Positions 2,385-30,784 of a stretch of DNA of 30,791 nt are shown here, one piece after another. Each line of letters opens with the position of its first letter. The stretch's first letter is position 1. A program made the position numbers and the translations under genes. Origin of the DNA: Nitrospinales bacterium. Its GTDB lineage: Bacteria > Nitrospinota > Nitrospinia > Nitrospinales > JAJDAT01. Where the stretch lies: NCBI GenBank assembly GCA_046757665.1, contig JBHHYO010000027.1, positions 1 to 30,791 on the forward strand. Reading direction: 5' to 3'. The notes beneath the pieces are model-generated. The model was not told the DNA's origin. It worked only from the letters and a program-made list of their open reading frames with translations, and ran no database searches.

Positions 2385-2580
2385 AGGATGCGCGAAGAAA
2401 TTTGAATAATAATTGATTACTCCCGCAAAATAATGGATAATGATCTTCCAAAACAGCCCGAACGCGCCATACGATAGCCTGACAACCGGCATCGGCGATT
2501 TTGCGGAGGTGATTTTCCCGAAAATTGCCCGTACTTCGGGCAGAGTCTGATCCGTTAAACACTTTTTCGGAATATCCCGA

Positions 2581-2760
2581 ATGAACTTGCAAGGGGAAAA
2601 AGTTGCCAGCATTAAAGTCATCAACATCTCCGAGGAATCCGCCGACGCCATCGAAAAAATGGTGAATGCAACAGTCGGTTTTCTGCACAAGCAGAACACC
2701 AAGATACTGGATATTCAAATCACGGACGACAACATTTTTTTCATCCTCGGCGAGAAATAA
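2581..2760 (+). CDS. Small hypothetical protein, 59 aa (below the ORF-track cutoff)
   Basis: ATG..TAA encodes MNLQGEKVASIKVINISEESADAIEKMVNATVGFLHKQNTKILDIQITDDNIFFILGEK; protein-like amphipathic pattern; same strand as the downstream tRNA and DUF507 genes. Confidence 0.7.
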   Translation: MNLQGEKVASIKVINISEESADAIEKMVNATVGFLHKQNTKILDIQITDDNIFFILGEK

Positions 2761-2795
2761 AAAGACGCCTTGCTCCGAAACCTTGAACGCGCAAC

Positions 2796-2868
2796 GCGGG
2801 AGTAGCTCAGTTGGTAGAGTGTCAGCTTCCCAAGCTGAATGTCGCGGGTTCGAGCCCCGTCTCCCGCT
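2796..2868 (+). tRNA. tRNA-Gly (CCC), CCA not encoded
   Basis: Acceptor GCGGGAG/CTCCCGC, D arm GCTC-AGTTGGTA-GAGT, anticodon arm TCAGC-TTCCCAA-GCTGA, T loop GGTTCGAG, discriminator T. Confidence 0.97.
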
Positions 2869-2933
2869 TTTTATGATTGTCGGCGGCCGGCTTTTTGCCG
2901 GAAACCCGCCCCATCATTACCGGAAATGAAAAC

Positions 2934-3215
2934 ATGAAGCTCCAAAAAAACTTTATCGAACTCATGGCGCGAAAAATCGTCGAGTCCCTGATCAAAAACG
3001 ATTTGATTATCTGGGAAGACACACCGGAAAAATTGACCGCCATCGTCGCCAAGGTCATCACCGACGACCTTATGGTGGAAGACCGGCTGAACGAAGAAGT
3101 CAAAATGTTGCTTGAATCCAGGACCAAGGACTATGAACGCAGTATGATGGATTACGGCCGCGTTTTCCAGATGGTCAAATCCAAACTGGTCCGCGAACGG
3201 GGATTGATCCTCTAA
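2934..3215 (+). CDS. DUF507 family protein
   Basis: MKLQKNFIELMARKIVESL...EDRLNEEVKMLLE...FQMVKSKLVRERGLIL resembles DUF507. ATG at 2934 preferred over the TTG at 2877. Confidence 0.8.
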   Translation: MKLQKNFIELMARKIVESLIKNDLIIWEDTPEKLTAIVAKVITDDLMVEDRLNEEVKMLLESRTKDYERSMMDYGRVFQMVKSKLVRERGLIL

Positions 3216-3232
3216 CCTTTAACCGGTATTCC

Positions 3233-3520
3233 ATGAAACTGAACAGGGAAAAAATCAATCACATCAGCAGTCTCATCGTGCAGGATTTTGAACGGCGCGA
3301 CGAGCTGGACTACAAGGTCAGCCTCAACGAACTGCGACTGCACATCGTCGAGGTCATGACCGAGCAATTGCAGATCGAAGACAATGCCGACACCGAAACC
3401 CGCAAAATCCTCGCCTCCTACACCGCAAAACCCCTGCGCGAAGGGACCCCCGAATGGGATATCCTGTATCAAAAGCATTTCGACGAATACATGAACAAGC
3501 ATGGGGTCAGCCGTCCCTAA
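3233..3520 (+). CDS. DUF507 family protein (second paralog)
   Basis: MKLNREKINHIS...RKILASY...EGTPEWDILYQKHFDEYMNKHG; tandem with the previous gene. Confidence 0.8.
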   Translation: MKLNREKINHISSLIVQDFERRDELDYKVSLNELRLHIVEVMTEQLQIEDNADTETRKILASYTAKPLREGTPEWDILYQKHFDEYMNKHGVSRP

Positions 3521-21690: not shown

Positions 21691-21779
21691 GCGGAATCTT
21701 CAAAAACAGCAAAACAAGAATTTGGGGATTGCGGCAAAAGTCTGTTGCACAAGCTTTGGATTTCTCCTATAATAAGGCA

Positions 21780-21882: not shown

Positions 21883-21898
21883 TGGTACAATGATTGCT
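21883..21898 (+). promoter_or_regulatory. Sigma54 (-24/-12) promoter
   Basis: TGGTACAATGATTGCT matches TGGYAC-N5-TTGCW with exact GG-N10-GC spacing; intergenic and oriented toward 22025. Confidence 0.75.
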
Positions 21899-22024
21899 TA
21901 TTTCAAAGGCAAACGAGAAACCGTTGCAAATTTGACGTTTGAGCCACAAGATCGCAAACAAGCCGATATCAAATAAATTGAAAAATTTATCCGACAAGCT
22001 ATTCAATTTGCCGTTAAACTAAAA

Positions 22025-22492
22025 ATGATCGCAAAATTTATCAAAAAAACGCCAACATCTGTCAGGGGCTTGTTTGCGGCGTTAATTGTACCGTTTTTGC
22101 TGTTCCCCTTTTATCATTTCCACCCTTACAGCGCACACGGCCACCCGGGGCAGTTGCAGTTGCATGTGCACCAGGGGCACTTTCATTCAGAAGTTATGGA
22201 AGGCTTGGCCCATTTAGCCCGATTCCATCCATCGAATCCGAATCTGGATGAGCCGTTTCATCAATCCCATTCCTTGCCCGAACACGACTCGGATGATTCG
22301 GAGTTTTATACTCACTCCACCAACGCACCTCCCATCAAATTCGATTTTGCTTCCAAGCAACTTGTCAATTTCATCTTTTTTAAAATTCCTCAACCCCCGA
22401 TTTTTTACTCTTCCATGTTTGAGGTTTCAGTCCCTGAGGCGTTAAACCTCTTCGGCTCTCGTTCGCAACGAGCTCCTCCTCTTCTGATTTAA
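22025..22492 (+). CDS. His-rich membrane-anchored/exported protein with C-terminal RAPP motif (CzcI/DUF2946-like leader)
   Basis: Basic N-terminus plus hydrophobic helix, 14 His including four HxH, no Cys, ends SQRAPPLLI; directly upstream of czcC. Confidence 0.8.
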   Translation: MIAKFIKKTPTSVRGLFAALIVPFLLFPFYHFHPYSAHGHPGQLQLHVHQGHFHSEVMEGLAHLARFHPSNPNLDEPFHQSHSLPEHDSDDSEFYTHSTNAPPIKFDFASKQLVNFIFFKIPQPPIFYSSMFEVSVPEALNLFGSRSQRAPPLLI

Positions 22493-22561
22493 TTTTCCAG
22501 ATTCACAATCGCCGGCGGCCCTGGTTCCAGGTTTTTAAACCCTTTACAAGTAATCCGCCCG

Positions 22562-22632
22562 TCCAATCATTACCGAATTGTAATGTTCCGACAATGCTTC
22601 GGTAAGGATGGCGAACGCATATTGTAATCATA
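22562..22632 (+). promoter_or_regulatory. Metal-response regulator promoter block, copy 1 (CopR/CusR/CzcR-box-like)
   Basis: Palindrome CATTAC-N6-GTAATG (22568-22585), 11-bp-phased half sites at 22580/22591/22602, -10-like TGTAAT at 22623; 64/71 identical to 28792-28862. Confidence 0.75.
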
Positions 22633-22726
22633 GGACAACTTTAATTTTATGCGCTTTTTTTACCAGTGTGCACATCGGCCGCTTACGGCAAAAACAGAAT
22701 ACGTATATTTATTGAAGGTTATTATC

Positions 22727-24079
22727 ATGAAGAGAATCATTAGACTTATCACGACATTCAGCTTGATTTTCTCGGCCTTGACACCAATTCCTGGTTTTGT
22801 GGAGGCCGCTCAAAATCCCATAGTTGAAATCCCAAAAGACTCCGCCGGACAAATTACTTTGCGCAATATGGAATCCACCGAACCCATCACCCTGCGCGAA
22901 GCTGTTGCCCTGGCATTGGTCAAAAATCCGGAGTTGCAGGCGTTTGACCAGGAAATCCGCGCACGAGAGGCAAACATCATCCAAGCCGGCCTCCTGCCCA
23001 ACCCAACGCTTGACGCGACGAATGAAAATTTTGCCGGGCAGAGGGCATTCAGCGGTTTCCGGCAGTCGCAAACCACCATAGCCTTGAGCCAGGTCATCCT
23101 GCTCGGCGGCAAAAGAGCCAAGCGAGTCCGCGTCGCTTCGTTTTCAAAAGACCTGGCGCAATGGGATTACGAAACCAAGCGCATGGATGTCCTTACCCAG
23201 GTAGCCCAAGCGTTCGCCGACGTCCTGGGCGCCCAACAGCAACTTCAGCTCATGCAGGATTTGGTGCGTCTCGCGGGACGGGTTCACCAAGCTGTTTCCG
23301 AACGGGTAAAGGCGGGAAAGGTTTCGCCCATTGAAAAAACCAGGGCTCAAGTCGCCCTTTCATCCACTCGCATCGAGCGGCAACGCGCCCAGCGGGAATT
23401 GAAGGCGGCCCGCAAAAGGCTGGCGTCCACCTGGGGGAGCACTACTCCTCGATTTAAATCGGCACGAGGGAATCTCTCGTCCATCTCGCCAATCCCTTCC
23501 CTGGAGTCCCTGAATCATCGCGTATCAAACAACCCGGATATGGCTCGCTGGGCCACGGAAATCGCCCAGCGAGAGGCGGTTGTCGACAATGAAAAAGCCA
23601 AGGCCATCCCGAACATCACCCTGACGGGCGGTTACCAGCGTATGGGGCAAACAAGCGACAACGGCCTTATCGTCGGATTTTCCATCCCACTGATGATCTT
23701 CAACCGCAATCAGGGGGCTATCCAGGAAGCCTCTTCCAGAGTGTCCAAGGCCGAAACAAACCGCAGAGCCACCAAGGTTCGGGTGACCACGGCGTTGGCA
23801 CAAGCTTATCAGGCGCTTGCTTTTGCCCATTCCCAGGCGGTCACCTTAAGGGATGAAGTCCTCCCTGGAGCCAAAAGCGCCTTTGACGCCATTAACGAGG
23901 GCTATTTCTTCGGGAAATTTCCCTTCCTCAACGTATTGGACAGCCAACGCACCTTTTTCCAGGCCAAGGCTCAATATGTTCGCGCGCTGACCGACTACCA
24001 TAAAGCGGTCGCGGGCGTGGAGCGACTAATCGGCGGCCCGTTGAACGGACAACGAAGATTTCAATCGACGTCGAATTAG
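22727..24079 (+). CDS. czcC: CzcC/TolC-family outer membrane efflux protein
   Basis: Signal peptide from ATG 22727 (GAAGG RBS), LREAVALALVKNPEL, AGLLPNP, FNRNQG, GKFPFLNVLDSQR, VERLIG. Confidence 0.92.
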   Translation: MKRIIRLITTFSLIFSALTPIPGFVEAAQNPIVEIPKDSAGQITLRNMESTEPITLREAVALALVKNPELQAFDQEIRAREANIIQAGLLPNPTLDATNENFAGQRAFSGFRQSQTTIALSQVILLGGKRAKRVRVASFSKDLAQWDYETKRMDVLTQVAQAFADVLGAQQQLQLMQDLVRLAGRVHQAVSERVKAGKVSPIEKTRAQVALSSTRIERQRAQRELKAARKRLASTWGSTTPRFKSARGNLSSISPIPSLESLNHRVSNNPDMARWATEIAQREAVVDNEKAKAIPNITLTGGYQRMGQTSDNGLIVGFSIPLMIFNRNQGAIQEASSRVSKAETNRRATKVRVTTALAQAYQALAFAHSQAVTLRDEVLPGAKSAFDAINEGYFFGKFPFLNVLDSQRTFFQAKAQYVRALTDYHKAVAGVERLIGGPLNGQRRFQSTSN

Positions 24080-24087
24080 GAGAAACC

Positions 24088-25611
24088 ATGCCCATCAAAA
24101 AATCGATCATGATAATTTCCCCAATCCTGCTGGCCGGAGGATTTGTCTTCGCATTGGTTGCGTCAAACAATCCGGCGCTACCTCCGAAAAGTGCCCCTGT
24201 TGAAGTCGATCGCAGGGATCATAAGGAACACGATGAGAACGAGGACCAACATGAACATGATGAAGAGGGAGGGCATGACGGCCGTGCTGAAAAAATCGTC
24301 CGCCTCAGCCGCGAGGAGATGATCGAGTTTGGAATTGAGGTTAAAACTGCGGGGCCTGGAAAATTAGATACCTATGTGAGTCTCCCCGGAGAAATCAAAG
24401 TCAATGCGGACCGGTTCGCGCATATTGTCCCCCGGGTGTCCGGAGTTGTTCTTGAAGTTCGAAAAAACCTTGGAAACCACGTCAAAGCCGGCGAAATCAT
24501 GGCGATTTTGGAAAGCGCCGAGCTAGGCAGGGCCAAAACCGAATACTTCCAAGGCAGACAACAACTCGATATCGCCGAAACCGACCAGAGACGCGCACAA
24601 ACCATCCATGACAATACTCTCCGGTTACTGAAACTTCTCAAGGAGTTTCCCGACCCGGAAGTGGTGCTCAAGAAAACCGTGGGTCTGGATATGGGCAAAA
24701 ACCGAAGCCGCCTTATTTCTACTTACACCCGCTTCCTGCTGACGAGAGAAACTTACAAACGCGAGAAAAAGCTGTATGAAAAAAAGATTTCCAGCCAGGC
24801 GGAATTTCTGATTGCGAAAAGCGAGTACAAAAGCGCCCAAGCGGGGTATCTGGCGGCCTATGACGAGGTTTCATTCAACATCAAAAGAAGTCTGCTCGAA
24901 AAAAATCGAGCCATAAAAGTAGCCGACACCGCTATGCAGGCGGCGGAACGCAACCTCCGTGTCCTGGGAGTCACCAACGAAGAACTGGCGAAATTAAAAG
25001 ATGAAGACTCCTCCGAGTCCTCGGTCACACTCGTTGAGATGCGCGCACCCATTGAGGGTACGGTGATTGAAAAACATATCACGCTGGGAGAGGTGCTCCA
25101 GCAGGATGCCAAGGCCTTCGTCATCGCCGACCTGAGTTCCGTATGGGTTGACCTGAAGGTTTATCAAAAGGACTTGCCCTTGATCCGCGAAGGCTTGAAC
25201 GTAATGATTTCCGCCGGTTCCGGAGTGCCTGACGCCAAGGGAAAGATTTTCTATGTGAGATCGCTTGTCGGCGAGAAAACCCGCACTGCCCTGGCTCGTG
25301 TCATTCTTCAAAATCCGGACAGGCTTTGGCGCCCGGGACTGTTTGTTAACGGAAAAGTTGCGATTGGAAACATTTCAGTTCCTCTGTTGATCCCCAGGAG
25401 CGCGCTCCAAACTATAGATGGGCAAACTGTAGTCTTCGTCAAAACAGATGAGGGTTTTCGGCCCGAACCCGTAACGATTGGAAGAACCAGCAAAGATTAC
25501 ACCGAAATAATTTCGGGAATTTCCCTGGGACAACAATATGTAGCGCGAGGCGGATTCACTTTGAAAGCCGAGCTGGCCAAGGGTGGCTTCGAGTCCGGCC
25601 ATAGTCATTAA
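24088..25611 (+). CDS. czcB: CzcB-family periplasmic adaptor (MFP), His/acid-rich N-terminus, extended hairpin
   Basis: PRVSGVV, RAPIEGTVIE, IADLSSVWV, TRTALAR, WRPGLFV, C-terminal GHSH. Confidence 0.93.
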   Translation: MPIKKSIMIISPILLAGGFVFALVASNNPALPPKSAPVEVDRRDHKEHDENEDQHEHDEEGGHDGRAEKIVRLSREEMIEFGIEVKTAGPGKLDTYVSLPGEIKVNADRFAHIVPRVSGVVLEVRKNLGNHVKAGEIMAILESAELGRAKTEYFQGRQQLDIAETDQRRAQTIHDNTLRLLKLLKEFPDPEVVLKKTVGLDMGKNRSRLISTYTRFLLTRETYKREKKLYEKKISSQAEFLIAKSEYKSAQAGYLAAYDEVSFNIKRSLLEKNRAIKVADTAMQAAERNLRVLGVTNEELAKLKDEDSSESSVTLVEMRAPIEGTVIEKHITLGEVLQQDAKAFVIADLSSVWVDLKVYQKDLPLIREGLNVMISAGSGVPDAKGKIFYVRSLVGEKTRTALARVILQNPDRLWRPGLFVNGKVAIGNISVPLLIPRSALQTIDGQTVVFVKTDEGFRPEPVTIGRTSKDYTEIISGISLGQQYVARGGFTLKAELAKGGFESGHSH

Positions 25612-25628: not shown

Positions 25629-28600
25629 GTGGTCGAAAAATCCATTCGGTTTTCCCTGAAAAGCGGTCTGTTAATGGTTGTCCTGGCCGTGCTGGTCATG
25701 GCCGCAGGCTATTACAGTTATAAACAACTTCCCGTGGACGCCTTCCCGGACGTCTCCCCTTCCCTGGTGCAAATATTCACCGAAACCGAGGGACTGTCGC
25801 CGGAAGATATTGAAAAATACATAACCTATCCCATTGAAGCGGCCATGAACGGCCTGCCAAACCTCCGGCTGATACGTTCCGTTTCCAATTTCGGGTTGTC
25901 CGTGGTCAATATTTATTTCGAGGACGGCACCGACATCTATTTTGCCCGGCAGGTGGTCGGCCAGCGCCTGCAAGAGGCACGGCGGGATATTCCCCAAGGG
26001 TTTGGCGAACCCGTCATGGGCCCTATCTCCACCGGCATGGGCTTGGTTTTATTTTATTATCTGGAGGATGAAACCGGACAACGCTCACTGGAAGAACTGC
26101 GAACGATCCAGGACTGGATAGTCAAGTTCAACCTGCAGACCGTGCCCGGAGTTACAGAAATACTCGGCATAGGCGGCTATGAAAAACAATTTCACGTCGT
26201 CATCGACCCCGACGCCCTGTTGCGTTACCAGGTCACCCTCAGGGAAGTCATCGGCAAGATTCGCGCCAACAATCTGAACGTGGGCGCCCAATTTATCGAA
26301 AAAGGCGCCGAGGAATATATCGTCCGCTCCGTCGGTCTCGCTTCAAACATCCAGGATATTGAAAATATCGTCATCAAATCCGAGGACGGTACGCCGGTTT
26401 TCCTCAAACAATTGGCCCAAGTCCAAGTGGGGGGCGCGGTCCGCCGGGGCGTGCAAACGCGAAACGGCATCGAAGAAGTCGTCGCCGGCATGGTCATTAA
26501 ATTGTTCGGCACAAATTCCTCCACGGTGATCGGACAAACGGAGGCAAGGCTTAAAGAGATCAACCGCATTTTGCCCGAAGGAATCAAGCTGGTCCCTTAT
26601 TACGAGCAAAAAACCCTCATCGCGGCGTGCGTAGCCACCGTAACGGATGCTTTAGTTCAGGGAATCGTACTGGTCATTTTAATTCTGACGGCTTTCATGG
26701 GCGGCGTCCGGCCCAGCGTGGTGGTGGCGCTGGCGATCCCCTTTTCGGTTCTATTCGCCACGTTATGGATGAAGTATCTGGGCATTTCCGCCAACCTCAT
26801 GTCCCTGGGGGGCCTGGCCATTGCCATCGGCATGATGGTGGATGGCGCCATAGTCATTGTCGAAAACGTCGACCGCATGTTGCGCGAAGCCGATCCGGCA
26901 GAGCCGCGCATCCACGTGGTCACCCGCGCCTGTGTGGAAGTGGGACGCCCCATCCTCTTTGCCATAACCATTATCATCATCGTGTTTCTGCCTTTATTCA
27001 CCTTGCAGGGAGTCGAGGGCAAAACCTTCCGTCCCCTGGCCTATACCGTAGCCCTCGCCATGCTGGGTTCGTTGATCTTTGCCCTGTTTCTGGCGCCGGT
27101 GTTGTCCCACATGCTCATGCGAAAAACCGGGAACCCCAAGACCACAAGCGACTCCGGAGAAGGAAAAGTTTTGCGTTTGTTGTTAAAAGCTTATCGACCA
27201 TTGGTAACTTTTTTTGTTGCGCAACGCAAAATGGCCATCGGCCTGGTCATGGTTTTGCTGTTGGTCGGCCTTGTCATCTTCCCCCGGTTGGGGGCAGAGT
27301 TCACCCCCACTCTTCAGGAAGGCACCATGGTCGTTCGGTTAACCATGGCGCCATCCATTTCTCTAAAAGAAAGCACACGGATTACCAAGCTGATAGGACG
27401 CCGGTTGACCAAAATCCCGGAAGTGACCGGGACCGTCACCCGCATCGGACGCGGCGAGGTGGGCGCCCATACCGACCCGATCAACAACGCTGAAATGTAC
27501 ATCCTGCTGAAACCGAAAAGCGAATGGCGGTTCGCCAAACAAGAGGACCTTCAGGAAGCCATTCGTCAAGACCTGGGAGAAATCAAGGGCGTCCTCACCA
27601 ACTTTACCCAGCCGATTGCAATGACCGTAGACGAACTGCTGGAAGGCGTGCGCGCGGAACTGGCCATCAAACTGTTCGGGGACGACCTGGACATTTTGAA
27701 ACAAAAAGCCGACGAAATCGCCTCGGTCGTTAAACAAGTGAAAGGGGCGGCGGATGTTCAGCCAGACCAGATCAGCGGCACGCCGCAACTGCTCATTCGG
27801 GTCGACCGCCAGGCCGTCGCCCGCTACGGAATAAATGTCGCCGACGTCCAGGAGGTGATCCGTGCCGCCGTCGGCGGAGAAGTCGCCGGCCAGCTTCTGG
27901 AGGGAATCCGGCGTTTCGATATCCTGGTACGCTTTACTCCCGAAGCCAGAATGACGCGCGAAGCCATCGGCCAAATTCTGATTCCGGCTCCCGGCGGCAT
28001 CAACGTACCGCTCATTCAGCTCACCCAAATTAAAGAAATCGTCGGCCCCCGCCAGATCACCCGCGAAAACAATCAGCGGTTCATCACCGTGCAATGCAAT
28101 GTCACGGGCCGCGACATCGTTTCTTTTGTCGAGGAAGCCCAGCGGGCCATTGAAGCCAAGGTGAAACTGCCTTCCGGCTATCTCGTCACCTGGGGCGGAC
28201 AGTTCCGGCTTCAACAGGAAGCGAACAAACGACTGGCGCTGGTGGTACCCATTACCCTGCTGATTATTTTCATCTTGTTATATTCGAGCTTTGATTCATT
28301 CAAAAATTCGCTGTTAATTCTGTTCAACATCCCGCTGGCCCTGGTCGGCGGCGTAGTCGGGCTTTGGCTGACCCAGCAAAACCTGTCCGTACCGGCATCG
28401 GTAGGGTTCATTGCCCTTTTTGGCATCGCTCTGGAAAACGGCATGGTTCTGGTAACCTACCTCAACCAGCTTGTCAAAGAAGGCATACCTATAGACGAAG
28501 CGTCGGTCAAGGGAGCCTGCCTGAGAGTGCGTCCCGTACTGATGACTGCCCTGACAACCGCGTTGGGCCTGGCTCCCCTGCTGTTTTCACATGGAACGGG

Positions 28601-28763
28601 AAGTGAAGTACAACGTCCATTGGCCACCGTGGTCGTCGGCGGCTTGATCACTTCCACCGTGCTGACCCTTCTGGTTGTTCCAGCGTTCTACAAATGGTTT
28701 GCCGCCCAGCCCGAACCGATCGAAGCAAATCACGAAGCGCCACCTCTGGCAACAAAAGCCTAG
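25629..28763 (+). CDS. czcA: CusA/CzcA-family heavy-metal efflux RND transporter
   Basis: LPVDAFPDVS, NLMSLGG, VDGAIVIVEN, GVEGKTFRPLA, GFIALFGIA, RVRPVLMT, GSEVQRPLATVVVGGL; GTG start. Confidence 0.96.
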   Translation: MVEKSIRFSLKSGLLMVVLAVLVMAAGYYSYKQLPVDAFPDVSPSLVQIFTETEGLSPEDIEKYITYPIEAAMNGLPNLRLIRSVSNFGLSVVNIYFEDGTDIYFARQVVGQRLQEARRDIPQGFGEPVMGPISTGMGLVLFYYLEDETGQRSLEELRTIQDWIVKFNLQTVPGVTEILGIGGYEKQFHVVIDPDALLRYQVTLREVIGKIRANNLNVGAQFIEKGAEEYIVRSVGLASNIQDIENIVIKSEDGTPVFLKQLAQVQVGGAVRRGVQTRNGIEEVVAGMVIKLFGTNSSTVIGQTEARLKEINRILPEGIKLVPYYEQKTLIAACVATVTDALVQGIVLVILILTAFMGGVRPSVVVALAIPFSVLFATLWMKYLGISANLMSLGGLAIAIGMMVDGAIVIVENVDRMLREADPAEPRIHVVTRACVEVGRPILFAITIIIIVFLPLFTLQGVEGKTFRPLAYTVALAMLGSLIFALFLAPVLSHMLMRKTGNPKTTSDSGEGKVLRLLLKAYRPLVTFFVAQRKMAIGLVMVLLLVGLVIFPRLGAEFTPTLQEGTMVVRLTMAPSISLKESTRITKLIGRRLTKIPEVTGTVTRIGRGEVGAHTDPINNAEMYILLKPKSEWRFAKQEDLQEAIRQDLGEIKGVLTNFTQPIAMTVDELLEGVRAELAIKLFGDDLDILKQKADEIASVVKQVKGAADVQPDQISGTPQLLIRVDRQAVARYGINVADVQEVIRAAVGGEVAGQLLEGIRRFDILVRFTPEARMTREAIGQILIPAPGGINVPLIQLTQIKEIVGPRQITRENNQRFITVQCNVTGRDIVSFVEEAQRAIEAKVKLPSGYLVTWGGQFRLQQEANKRLALVVPITLLIIFILLYSSFDSFKNSLLILFNIPLALVGGVVGLWLTQQNLSVPASVGFIALFGIALENGMVLVTYLNQLVKEGIPIDEASVKGACLRVRPVLMTALTTALGLAPLLFSHGTGSEVQRPLATVVVGGLITSTVLTLLVVPAFYKWFAAQPEPIEANHEAPPLATKA

Positions 28764-28791
28764 ATCACTCCCATTACGGACAATTCGCTTA

Positions 28792-28862
28792 TCCAAGCAT
28801 TACCGAATTGTAATGTTCCGGCAATGCTCAGGTAAGGATGGCGAACGTATATTATAATTATA
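28792..28862 (+). promoter_or_regulatory. Metal-response regulator promoter block, copy 2
   Basis: Same CATTACCGAATTGTAATG palindrome (28798-28815), perfect TATAAT at 28853-28858; 64/71 identical to copy 1. Confidence 0.75.
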
Positions 28863-28919
28863 TAAGGCTGGCCTCTACCCGAAGCTTGCGGCGCTGAGTG
28901 AAAATTTCGGCCGGCAGAG

Positions 28920-28982
28920 GGCATGGAGCGGCTGATCGGCGGCCCGTTGAACATGGCATCGTCCATACTGGAGAAATTCTAA
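28920..28982 (+). pseudogene. 3' remnant of a deleted czcC paralog
   Basis: 28920-28952 is 30/33 identical to czcC 24014-24046. It encodes GMERLIGGPLN...* versus GVERLIGGPLN...*; its TAA overlaps the next ATG. Confidence 0.85.
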
Positions 28983-30784
28983 TGACTCGCAAACAATCCA
29001 TCATTGCAATTTCCGTTGCCGCGGCAATCGCTCCACTGTTGCTTTTTTTATATACAAACAACTCATCTGACAACGGCAACTTCACGAAAGACGCCTCGCA
29101 ACCCGTTGCCCAAGCGAATCCTGCCAAAGGATCGCACGGAGGGAGATTGTTTGCAAAGGATGATATTCAAGTCGAAATCACCATCTACGAAAAAGGCGTC
29201 CCACCTCAGTTTCGAGCCTATATCTCGAGCCTCCGAGGTGGGCCGGTCGAGCTTGCGGGGGTGAAACTGACCGTGGAACTTCACCGGCTCGACAGAGTGG
29301 ACATCATTCATTTCCGCCCGGCGGGAGAATATCTTCTCGGAGACAAGACGGTTGAAGAACCGCACTCGTTTGACGCCAAGGTGCTCATGGAATGGAAAGG
29401 GCAAACCTATCACTGGCAGTTTTCCTCAATAGAGGCCCGGGCGGAGATTCCCGAAGATGCCGCAAAAAATGCCGGCATCGTCATCAAAACCGCAGGACCC
29501 GTAACTCTTAAAAATACCCTCACCCTGCCTGGAGAAGTCAGGCTCAATGAAGAGAAAATCGTAAATATTACCCCAATGCTCGATGGGGTAGTGAGAGAGG
29601 TGCACGCCAACCTGGGTGATCAAGTTAAGGCAGGGCAAACCCTGGCTGTCCTGGACAGCCGAGAGCTGGCAGATGCCAAAAGTCTCTACCTGGCGGCCAA
29701 AAAAGACTATGAAACGGCAAAGTTCAGTTTGAACAGAAAAAAAACCGTCTATGAGAACATCCGGAAATTGATCAAAATCCTGAAAACGGGAAAAAACCAG
29801 GACAACCTCGAGCAAAAGATCAAGGGCCTGATACTTGGTGACAGCAGAGCCCAGCTCATTCCCGCCTACATGAAATTAAAACGCTCCAAAGCCACCTACC
29901 TCCGGGAAAAAAGGCTGTTTGAGAAAAAAATATCTCCGGAATCCGATTACCTTCAAGCGCTGGAAGAGTACAAAAGCGCAAAGGCGGTTTATACAGCCAT
30001 GATCGACATGCTTTCGTACCAAAGTCGGTTTATCTTCAGTGAAAAGCAGAAAACCGCGGAAATCGCCGAGTTTAAGGTCGATACTGCCACCCAAAAGCTC
30101 CTGGCGCTCGGCTTATCACCTTCCGAAATTCAGGATTTGGCAAACTATGAGAAAGTGTCGAACCTTTTCACCAAGAAGTCGAACTTTGAACAAGAGACTG
30201 AAGAAAAATTTACCCAATACACGTTAAAAACACCCATCGACGGCACAGTAATTGAGAAATACATTACGATGGGTGAAGTCGTAAAGAAAAACCAAAAAGT
30301 TTATTTGATAGCAGACCTCTCCAACGTCTGGATCAATATTACGATCCCCGCAAAAGACTTGAAATCCGTAAAACCCGGACAGGCGGTCACCGTAAAATCC
30401 GAACAATTGGGTCTGGAATCGCAAGGCAAGCTCACATACATGGGGTCTATCGTAAACAACACCACCCGTTCCATAAGCGGTCGGGCGGTCATTCCCAACC
30501 CTCAGGGAAACTGGCGTCCCGGTTTGTTCGTTTCCGTTGAACTGGTTGAAGAGGAGCGAACCGTGCCTGTGGCGGTTCCTGTAAAAGCAATTCAATCCAT
30601 GCGCGGTTGGTCTGTTGTATTCGTAAAGTATGGCGACTTGTTTGAAGCCCGCCCCCTGCAATTGGGCGACAGTGATGGGCGCTGGGTGGAAGTCCTGCAC
30701 GGACTTTCGCCGGGCCAGGAATATGTGGCCGAAAACAGTTTTACCGTAAAGGCCGAGATCGGCAAAGCCAGCGCCAGCCATTAA
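28982..30784 (+). CDS. czcB: Second CzcB-family adaptor with extra N-terminal domain
   Basis: ATG 28982 with GGAGA RBS, TM anchor, GSHGGRLF...GVPPQFRAY...EEPHSFD domain, SRELADAKS, KTPIDGTVIE, IADLSNVW, WRPGLFV. Confidence 0.92.
   Translation: MTRKQSIIAISVAAAIAPLLLFLYTNNSSDNGNFTKDASQPVAQANPAKGSHGGRLFAKDDIQVEITIYEKGVPPQFRAYISSLRGGPVELAGVKLTVELHRLDRVDIIHFRPAGEYLLGDKTVEEPHSFDAKVLMEWKGQTYHWQFSSIEARAEIPEDAAKNAGIVIKTAGPVTLKNTLTLPGEVRLNEEKIVNITPMLDGVVREVHANLGDQVKAGQTLAVLDSRELADAKSLYLAAKKDYETAKFSLNRKKTVYENIRKLIKILKTGKNQDNLEQKIKGLILGDSRAQLIPAYMKLKRSKATYLREKRLFEKKISPESDYLQALEEYKSAKAVYTAMIDMLSYQSRFIFSEKQKTAEIAEFKVDTATQKLLALGLSPSEIQDLANYEKVSNLFTKKSNFEQETEEKFTQYTLKTPIDGTVIEKYITMGEVVKKNQKVYLIADLSNVWINITIPAKDLKSVKPGQAVTVKSEQLGLESQGKLTYMGSIVNNTTRSISGRAVIPNPQGNWRPGLFVSVELVEEERTVPVAVPVKAIQSMRGWSVVFVKYGDLFEARPLQLGDSDGRWVEVLHGLSPGQEYVAENSFTVKAEIGKASASH

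Follow-up and report, generated by a model that had tools for sequence, protein, structure and literature searches.

A histidine-rich open reading frame ending in R-A-P-P upstream of czcCBA in Nitrospinota: a candidate metal-sensing arrest leader

What is the role of a short, histidine-rich open reading frame (ORF) that ends in a putative ribosome arrest motif and stands in front of a heavy-metal efflux operon? Such an ORF lies at 22025–22492 on the + strand of a 30,791-nucleotide (nt) stretch of a Nitrospinales genome (contig JBHHYO010000027.1; hereafter, the window), and genes for a czcCBA-type resistance–nodulation–division (RND) system follow it on the same strand. Our analysis indicated that the product of the ORF most likely acts in cis as a regulatory nascent chain and not primarily as a finished protein. 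More specifically, it is reasonably probable that the ORF is a metal-sensing arrest leader working like CutF or CruR, and it is referred to below as the leader ORF.

The candidate leader gene and its family

The leader ORF extends from an ATG at 22025 to a TAA at 22490–22492 and encodes 155 amino acids (aa), including 14 His and no Cys. Its translation can be divided into four parts. A basic stretch and a hydrophobic anchor or signal, predicted from Kyte–Doolittle values and an AlphaFold2 model, occupy residues 1–30 (22025–22114), with three K/R and no D/E ahead of a 17-residue hydrophobic window scoring 2.05. A conserved His-rich module follows at residues 31–90 (22115–22294); it carries the motifs HFH (31–33), HGH (38–40), HVH (47–49) and HFH (52–54), and its conserved pattern reads HFHP, HxH, HxH, HFHS, E, AH and then D..HQSHS. 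Residues 91–148 (22295–22468) form a spacer that the family alignment marks as conserved in length and poorly conserved in sequence. The RAPP-type arrest motif R-A-P-P occupies residues 149–152 (22469–22480; codons CGA GCT CCT CCT), and only L-L-I separates it from the stop codon. An earlier note, made from the letters of the window alone, had described the 155-aa ORF, its N-terminal hydrophobic segment, the 14 His, the HxH motifs and the RAPP three codons before the stop, and all of these details were correct.

The RAPP ending of the leader ORF exceeds chance. Among the 7986 ORFs of at least 100 aa enumerated from the whole 2.97 Mb genome, spurious ones included, three end in R-[S/A/G]-P-P plus one to six residues: the leader ORF itself, a signal-bearing 100-aa ORF, and an Arg/Pro/Ser-rich ORF resembling an out-of-frame artefact. 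The leader protein matched no Pfam or NCBIfam family, and an Rfam search of the whole window (E up to 1) yielded two tRNAs and chance-level matches, with no riboswitch near the leader ORF.

Relatives of the leader were found across the phylum. A clustered-protein search (5.8 billion) returned three relatives, one labelled Nitrospinales, and an exhaustive phmmer search returned 37 cluster representatives at E up to 0.001. A metagenome scan with a four-sequence alignment added one locus (L085). With a profile search, the leader gene was detected in 73 of the 120 genomes of the phylum, in 40 of the 57 high-quality genomes and in 24 of the 30 genera. The family counts given here rest on 78 matching loci, and some spacing counts on 77. 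The median length of the family is 155 aa. None of 38 aligned members, the window protein included, convincingly matched a Pfam family. The ESM Atlas label DUF6769 (score 0.96, 35% of members) was not confirmed, and a search for DUF6769 in the whole genome gave nothing.

The C-terminal motif stands out from the variable spacer before it. R-[S/A/G]-P-P was present in 76 of the 78 loci, as RSPP in 60, RAPP in 11 and RGPP in five; four residues follow the prolines in 56/77 loci, three in 11/77 and one to six in 74/77. In the 78-row alignment, the motif Arg is kept in 97% and each Pro in 99% of rows. The information content of R149, P151 and P152 reaches 4.2–4.3 bits per column, against mostly ca. 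0.6–1.5 bits over residues 106–146. Every Pro codon and four of the Arg codons occur at the motif, and because synonymous codons vary freely at R-x-P-P, selection acts on the peptide and not on the RNA. A natural variant occurs in one locus (L083), where the motif reads L-S-P-P and the Arg is lost; the other locus without R-[S/A/G]-P-P (L017) holds a shortened copy, cut short and continued by unrelated sequence on the other strand. In three loci (L019, L046 and L061), 9–11 residues follow the prolines instead of the usual ca. four.

Conservation was equally evident at the N-terminal side. A basic and then hydrophobic N-terminus was present in every member (17-residue Kyte–Doolittle maximum: median 2.23, minimum 1.56), with a median of three K/R and no D/E before the hydrophobic window. 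The HxH motifs were invariant features of the family alignment: H31, H33, H49 and H54 are conserved in 100% of the 78 sequences, H47 in 99%, H38 in 96% and H40 in 91%, and S55 is nearly invariant. The distance from the first HxH to the motif Arg has a mode of 118 residues (37/77 loci) and is 116–119 residues in 61/77. The earlier note had proposed to look for conservation of RAPP/RGPP, of the HxH motifs and of the His-to-RAPP distance in homologs upstream of czcC genes, and each was found. Its description of the leader as Cys-free, in contrast, applies to the window protein and not to the family, in which only 46 of the 78 members lack Cys. The most distant branch (L079–L083; E 1e-8 to 1e-13 to the profile) combines RSPP and a four-residue tail (LSPP in L083) with Cys beside the His motifs, and the family is therefore not uniformly Cys-free.

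The AlphaFold2 model, built with the family alignment, reproduced this division. The predicted local distance difference test (pLDDT) values were 85–96 over residues 1–70, with helices at 11–29 (> 90) and 56–64 and short strands where the HxH motifs lie. Secondary structure ended at residue ca. 97, residues 81–150 fell below ca. 60 (block means of the spacer 48–62), and the C-terminal 60–70 residues were predicted to be unstructured. A Foldseek comparison of this model with PDB found no fold match (best E 3.3), and the ESM Atlas model of the protein was poor (pLDDT 0.49).

Downstream of the leader ORF in the window lie genes on the + strand for a czcC-like outer-membrane factor (OEP; 22727–24079; PF02321, E 4e-54), a czcB-like periplasmic adaptor (24088–25611; PF16576, E 5e-44; TIGR00999) and a CzcA/CusA-family heavy-metal RND pump (25629–28763; TIGR00914, 1102 bits). 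The solved structure nearest to the pump is ZneA (704 bits), compared with 649 bits for CusA. The adaptor has a stretch rich in His, Asp and Glu at residues ca. 40–65, which fits a divalent-cation system. The ORF listing placed the czcC start at 22649; ATG 22727 was preferred because the signal peptide, the Shine–Dalgarno sequence GAAGG and the onset of the homolog alignment agree on it. The earlier note had placed the leader directly upstream of czcCBA; the strand and the gene order (czcC–czcB–czcA) hold, but a 234-nt intergenic region lies in between. This is about twice the family median of 120 nt (range 79–547; 65 loci with a settable start).

The synteny extends to most of the family, the first downstream match being a czcC-like gene in 68 of the 78 loci. 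Of the ten exceptions, five end within 450 nt past the ORF and one (L002) has a czcB-like gene next. The remaining four (L049, L061, L062 and L072) constitute a paralogous His-rich RSPP subgroup with a small secreted protein (DUF6488 context) downstream, followed by a membrane protein in L061, L062 and L072. Pfam was run on L062 only, where it identified DUF6488 (2160–2516) and HupE_UreJ_2 (2556–3275; E 2e-55); the contexts of the other three were judged by eye. Furthermore, in two genomes a HupE-type unit lies just upstream of a czc-linked leader copy. Importer-type and exporter-type operons thus seem, from gene content, to use the same kind of leader.

RNA pairing and promoter candidates around the leader ORF

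The minimum-free-energy fold of 22455–22740 contained an 18-bp helix in which 22479–22497 pairs with 22714–22734, both on the + strand. The 5′ arm starts with the final two nt of the second Pro codon, runs through L-L-I and the stop codon and ends 5 nt further on, and the 3′ arm is the czcC translation initiation region, with GAAGG at 22714–22718 and the AUG at 22727–22729. This arm–start duplex had an energy of −17.0 kcal/mol, compared with −5.6 ± 2.0 kcal/mol for other ORF windows; a duplex at least as strong arose in 5 of 2000 shufflings of the arm and with 5 of 6154 windows from the whole 30.8-kb stretch. The helix persisted (17.8 expected pairs) when the folded segment was lengthened by 150 nt and 60 nt of context. 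A ribosome whose P site holds the first Pro codon shields ca. 15 nt downstream, here to ca. 22490, and would hold the 22479–22497 helix open.

Between a third and a half of the loci show weaker versions of the helix. Native arm–start duplexes across 65 loci averaged −9.14 kcal/mol, compared with −7.60 kcal/mol for cross-locus pairs, and none of 5000 permutations reached the native mean, a result that overstates the significance because related loci are not independent. Eight of the 65 loci ranked in the best 5% for their native duplex. With wide context, 31 of 63 loci placed the arm in the top 10% of partners for the initiation region, and in 20 of 63 the single best partner was no more than 10 nt from the arm. 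By reading, the positive loci come from ca. 10 genera and have differing arm sequences, often with tail codons opposite AUG-AAA. Pairing in ca. 10 genera through different sequences speaks for recurrent selection.

The intergenic region of the window also contains a 93-nt element (22540–22632, + strand) with the palindrome CATTAC-N6-GTAATG at 22568–22585. It matches 28770–28862 at 83% and is present in five copies in the genome, three of them on other contigs (L033, L034 and L035). In all five copies the palindrome or a close variant precedes a conserved A/T-rich box. By reading, the copies sit ca. 90–160 nt upstream of start codons, and one heads an operon encoding a PepSY protein, a membrane protein and a response-regulator receiver protein. 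The element is probably a response-regulator-dependent promoter, a reading favoured by its palindrome, its distance from start codons and its association with the response-regulator operon, and the five copies look like the promoters of a small two-component regulon. The element is peculiar to the window genome, and the equivalent region of the other 77 loci lacks it; a search for the palindrome upstream of the ORF and in the intergenic region of these loci gave only loose matches (e.g., L024). Two other identities of the repeat were rejected. A structured RNA was discarded since its two predicted hairpins show no compensatory changes across the five copies, and a sigma-54 promoter since the GG-to-GC spacing is two bases too long.

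The copy at 28770–28862 lies after czcA and is followed by czcC-like stretches and a second czcB-like gene (region 28877–28952 and 28982–30784). The czcC-like stretches are two, short and overlapping, and match the early part and the 3′ end of czcC (78% and 85%). The region looks like a duplicated operon from which czcC has been largely deleted.

Upstream of the leader ORF, a sigma-70-like promoter candidate was found at 21745–21773 on the + strand (TGCACA, 16 nt, TATAAT; 10/12 consensus matches). Between it and the leader lies a 28-codon mini-ORF (21890–21976), which begins M-I-A-Y-F, comparable to M-I-A-K-F in the main ORF. A 15-nt repeat (21977–21991 vs. 22028–22042; 87%) links the mini-ORF region to the main ORF, and the mini-ORF may be the remnant of a partial duplication.

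Proposed mechanism and alternative explanations

From the anatomy of the ORF, the conserved motif and its position, the conserved spacer length, the synteny with RND efflux genes and the helix in the window, we infer a possible topology, stall, metal ligand, regulatory sign and read-out as follows. The basic–hydrophobic N-terminal segment would target the nascent chain to the membrane with the N-terminus in and the C-terminus out. The HxH module (residues 31–90) would then emerge on the periplasmic side while the 58-residue spacer still fills the translocon and the ribosome tunnel; the fixed ruler of 116–119 residues predicts that the sensor is just clear of the translocon when the ribosome reaches the motif. 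The ribosome would pause at R-A-P-P, its A site occupied by Pro-tRNA, as in ApdA, ApdP, CruR and CutF. With no metal, translocation would pull the chain out, and the ribosome would finish the last three codons and leave. With a divalent metal bound to the His residues (Zn, Co, Cd or Ni, judged from the ligands and the pump), this pull would be lost and the stall would last. The stalled ribosome, covering ca. 22463–22491, would keep the 18-bp helix open so that czcC is translated, and it may also shield a G-poor tract from Rho.

Several observations weigh against this interpretation. First, the strong helix is specific to the window. The nearest available relative (L085) has a duplex of −8.8 kcal/mol, no better than 39% of controls; loci of a sister genus or the same family (L014, L020, L021 and L025) rank at 0.46–0.86; the initiation region shows no preference for the arm in 32 of 63 loci; and RNAalifold, applied to 10 loci of a single genus, failed to recover the arm–start helix. 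Second, czcCBA in the window probably has its own promoter, the 93-nt element, downstream of the leader. Transcripts of czcCBA without the leader would therefore exist, the helix would govern only transcripts starting upstream of the ORF, and the leader may not be the sole or main control. This promoter had been missed by the earlier note, whose interpretation of the ORF as an arrest leader is supported in part, the in-silico tests having been passed. Third, because HupE/UreJ is an importer-type family, its occurrence after the same leader type makes a single regulatory sign hard to reconcile. Fourth, the strong conservation and the confident model of residues 1–70 would be expected if the protein also functioned after its release. 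Fifth, homology to DUF2946, the family of CruR and CutF, was not detected: the model (PF11162) matched none of the 38 family members at E up to 1, the window protein at E up to 0.1, or anything in the whole genome at E up to 1. Finally, RSPP, the commonest form in the family, causes only intermediate arrest in the ApdA context (PMC12992588).

Among the alternatives, the one that survives best retains the arrest and changes the read-out. As in CruR, a ribosome held at RxPP would keep Rho from loading onto a G-poor tract, and release of the ribosome would lead to termination before czcC. A G-poor, C/U-rich tract around the leader stop (22452–22522, + strand) is, by composition, both a candidate Rho loading site and the pyrimidine strand of the helix. 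Most loci are likewise G-poor and C/U-rich over 70 nt around the stop: G amounts to 7% in the first 20 nt past the stop (65 loci), and the C/G ratio over the first 50 nt has a median of 2.0, being above 1.5 in 43/65 and below 1 in 4/65. The genome encodes rho (720 bits), and no intrinsic terminator was found on the + strand between the leader ORF and czcC in the window. The median intergenic length of the family is near the 162 bp of CruR (PMC9426467), and about half of the loci have a weak arm–start helix or none. In the window, however, the 18-bp helix is strong, and composition alone cannot separate the two read-outs because the pyrimidine-rich tract also pairs with the purine-rich czcC start region. 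Taken as read-outs, Rho termination of the CruR type and masking of the start are equally possible, and both may coexist or operate together; as a full explanation of the locus, the Rho version is possible but doubtful.

A second alternative is that the product is an ordinary membrane-anchored or periplasmic His-rich accessory protein (a chaperone, buffer or sensor partner; cf. CusF/CzcI) acting after release, with R-x-P-P and the hydrophobic tail serving as a degradation or docking signal at the protein level. RND metal operons often carry small periplasmic metal binders. The concentration of conservation and of high pLDDT (85–96) in residues 1–70, the length of 155 aa, which exceeds that of many leader peptides, and the probable separate czcCBA promoter downstream of the leader all agree with such a protein. 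Nevertheless, this explanation accounts neither for the 58 pre-motif residues, free in sequence and fixed in length, nor for a motif placed one to six residues, mostly four, from the stop in 74/77 loci, nor for the pairing of the mRNA just past the motif with the start of the next gene in the window. It also leaves unexplained the use of a tetrapeptide that proteomes avoid as impeding translation, RSPP, RAPP and RGPP being among the most avoided tetrapeptides of bacterial proteomes (PMC12992588). The accessory role therefore seems unlikely to be the whole explanation, although it and an arrest role are not mutually exclusive; if the product were a plain accessory protein, the result would be an ordinary one.

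Finally, plain translational coupling without regulated arrest, in which any finishing ribosome opens the czcC start, the di-proline slows translation slightly and metal control is wholly transcriptional through a two-component system at 22540–22632, appears very improbable: it is supported because the helix spans the stop codon and a terminating ribosome would also melt it, by the candidate response-regulator promoter and its five genomic copies, and by the weaker stalling of RSPP (PMC12992588), but it leaves unexplained the invariant His module, the fixed spacer length and the Arg two residues before the prolines (97%), which is not replaceable in RAPP-type arrest (PMC12992588), and its promoter element is missing from all other loci.

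Comparison with known systems

The closest precedent for the proposed arrest leader is CutF of Rhodobacter capsulatus, a Cu-sensing exported nascent protein whose stall melts a stem-loop over the cutO ribosome-binding site (PMC9973294; preprint 10.1101/2025.02.05.636593). In CutF, metal prolongs the stall and turns on a downstream detoxification gene (PMC9973294), which is the same logic as proposed here. A survey of 5334 CutF-like proteins, all shorter than 150 aa by filter, reported OEP/RND genes as their commonest downstream neighbours, as for the present family, and its histidine-only clusters (SSN 14 and 17) adjoin HupE/UreJ genes, like the four paralogs described above (PMC9973294). CutF is characterised by CxxxC, Cu, DUF2946 and a proline run, whereas the window protein has a His-only module and R-[S/A/G]-P-P and matches no DUF2946 model. 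The median of 155 aa also places the present family above the filter of that survey. The string ‘Nitrospin’ is absent from the main text of PMC9973294; its supplements may list members, and an overlap with clusters 14 and 17 is possible.

The likeness to CruR (Bp2923 of Bordetella pertussis, DUF2946), which the earlier note had pointed out, was borne out by the published description of that protein (PMC9426467). Both arrange a signal or putative anchor, a ligand motif, a spacer, RAPP and a short tail in front of a metal operon on the same strand. RAPP of CruR is required for expression of the downstream transporter gene, which lies beyond the intergenic region mentioned above, and Cu relieves the arrest and leads to Rho termination (PMC9426467). 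The spacing between ligand and proline motif is fixed in both, from CxxC to RAPP in CruR and from HxH to R here, which is an analogy and not proof of homology; it measures 45 residues in CruR (PMC9426467), compared with ca. 66–70 from the last His motif of the leader. CruR, in addition, uses CxxC and Cu and controls a TonB-dependent importer, so that its regulatory sign is opposite to that an exporter would need (PMC9426467). The leader family thus agrees with CutF and CruR in every feature that could be checked in silico apart from DUF2946, where the window protein shows neither a model match nor, having no Cys, a CxxC or CxxxC motif.

Like ApdA, ApdP, the ‘RQH’ peptides and SecM, the leader carries an R-A/G-P-P core at its C-terminus behind a spacer that is not conserved, and it is an upstream ORF (uORF) in front of the gene it would regulate; its basic–hydrophobic N-terminus would correspond to their localisation signal (PMC7897499, PMC10951233, PMC10987492, PMC12992588). 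ApdA, ApdP and the RQH peptides monitor Sec/YidC, precede secA, secDF or yidC, and have no conserved ligand module. The leader ORF is not such a monitoring substrate because its downstream genes are czcC, czcB and czcA. In ApdA, replacement of A by G is fully permissive for arrest and replacement by S (RSPP) partially so, RAPP and RGPP being the strongest cores (PMC12992588), and RSPP is among the motifs of uORFs that cluster with RAPP ones (PMC10987492). Most RAPP-like tetrapeptides in ordinary proteins do not stall (PMC10987492). RAPP and RGPP small ORFs have been reported to precede metal-homeostasis genes in a 2025 survey, which mined RAPP and RGPP uORFs only and whose main text does not contain the word ‘efflux’ (PMC12992588).

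CzcI of Cupriavidus metallidurans pMOL30 (L086, 15177–15524) resembles the leader in being a small signal-bearing ORF immediately upstream of czcC with a His-rich stretch and, by reading, R-A-P-D eight residues from its end. It differs in its length of 115 aa and in C-x-x-C-H. A comparison of CzcI with the leader family by hhalign gave a probability of 7.7% over 11 signal-peptide columns only, and a tblastn search of 72,556 plasmids with the window protein had no match up to E 1. No similarity between the two was thus detected, and the leader is distinct from CzcI. CzcI has been counted as a CutF-like protein without a proline motif (PMC9973294). RAPD is, however, among the RAP-x variants listed for ApcA-like uORFs (PMC10987492), and CzcI may deserve an arrest test despite that count. 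Another ORF of this general design was observed on a different contig of the window genome (L084, 3253–3555, + strand): its 100 aa comprise a basic–hydrophobic N-terminus, C-x-x-C-H and RGPP three residues before the stop, and after 69 nt a 306-aa ORF follows that matches no Pfam family. The 100-aa ORF is built like CruR/CutF but has no DUF2946 match, and hhalign against the His-rich family gave a probability of 3.8%.

These comparisons determine what is new about the leader family. CutF-like proteins upstream of RND pumps and histidine-only variants are already in print (PMC9973294), so that a leader of this kind has been described. The earlier note, which missed CutF, therefore overrated the novelty, and its emphasis on an exporter in place of an importer does not stand out, since the genes most commonly found after CutF-like proteins are OEP/RND genes. 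A literature search turned up neither this family nor a His-only RxPP leader in front of czcCBA, within the limits that the supplements of PMC9973294 and PMC12992588 may contain members. The features that are new are the His-only module, RSPP as the dominant natural core, the longer ruler, the different phylum and the lack of DUF2946 homology, together with the use of the same sensor design before both czcCBA and HupE/UreJ operons. Tentatively, the family could represent an independently evolved, phylum-wide transmembrane divalent-metal sensor, in which a His-only nascent-chain module and a deliberately weak arrest motif (RSPP as wild type, RAPP and RGPP as variants) are wired to czcCBA and HupE/UreJ; this would be a second origin of the CutF/CruR logic without DUF2946 ancestry.

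The proposed role would give a likely function to an unnamed gene of most Nitrospinota genomes examined. If the interpretation as an arrest leader is correct, anchor, ligand motif, ruler and stall site would form a compact cis-acting module, and the family would offer a natural system for studying how a ligand bound outside the membrane can tune stalling at the peptidyl-transferase centre. To our knowledge, copper is so far the only metal for which sensing by a nascent chain has been demonstrated, in CruR and, with cysteine ligands, in CutF. A His-only version before a Zn/Co/Cd-type RND pump would extend this principle to other metals and add RSPP as a natural arrest core.

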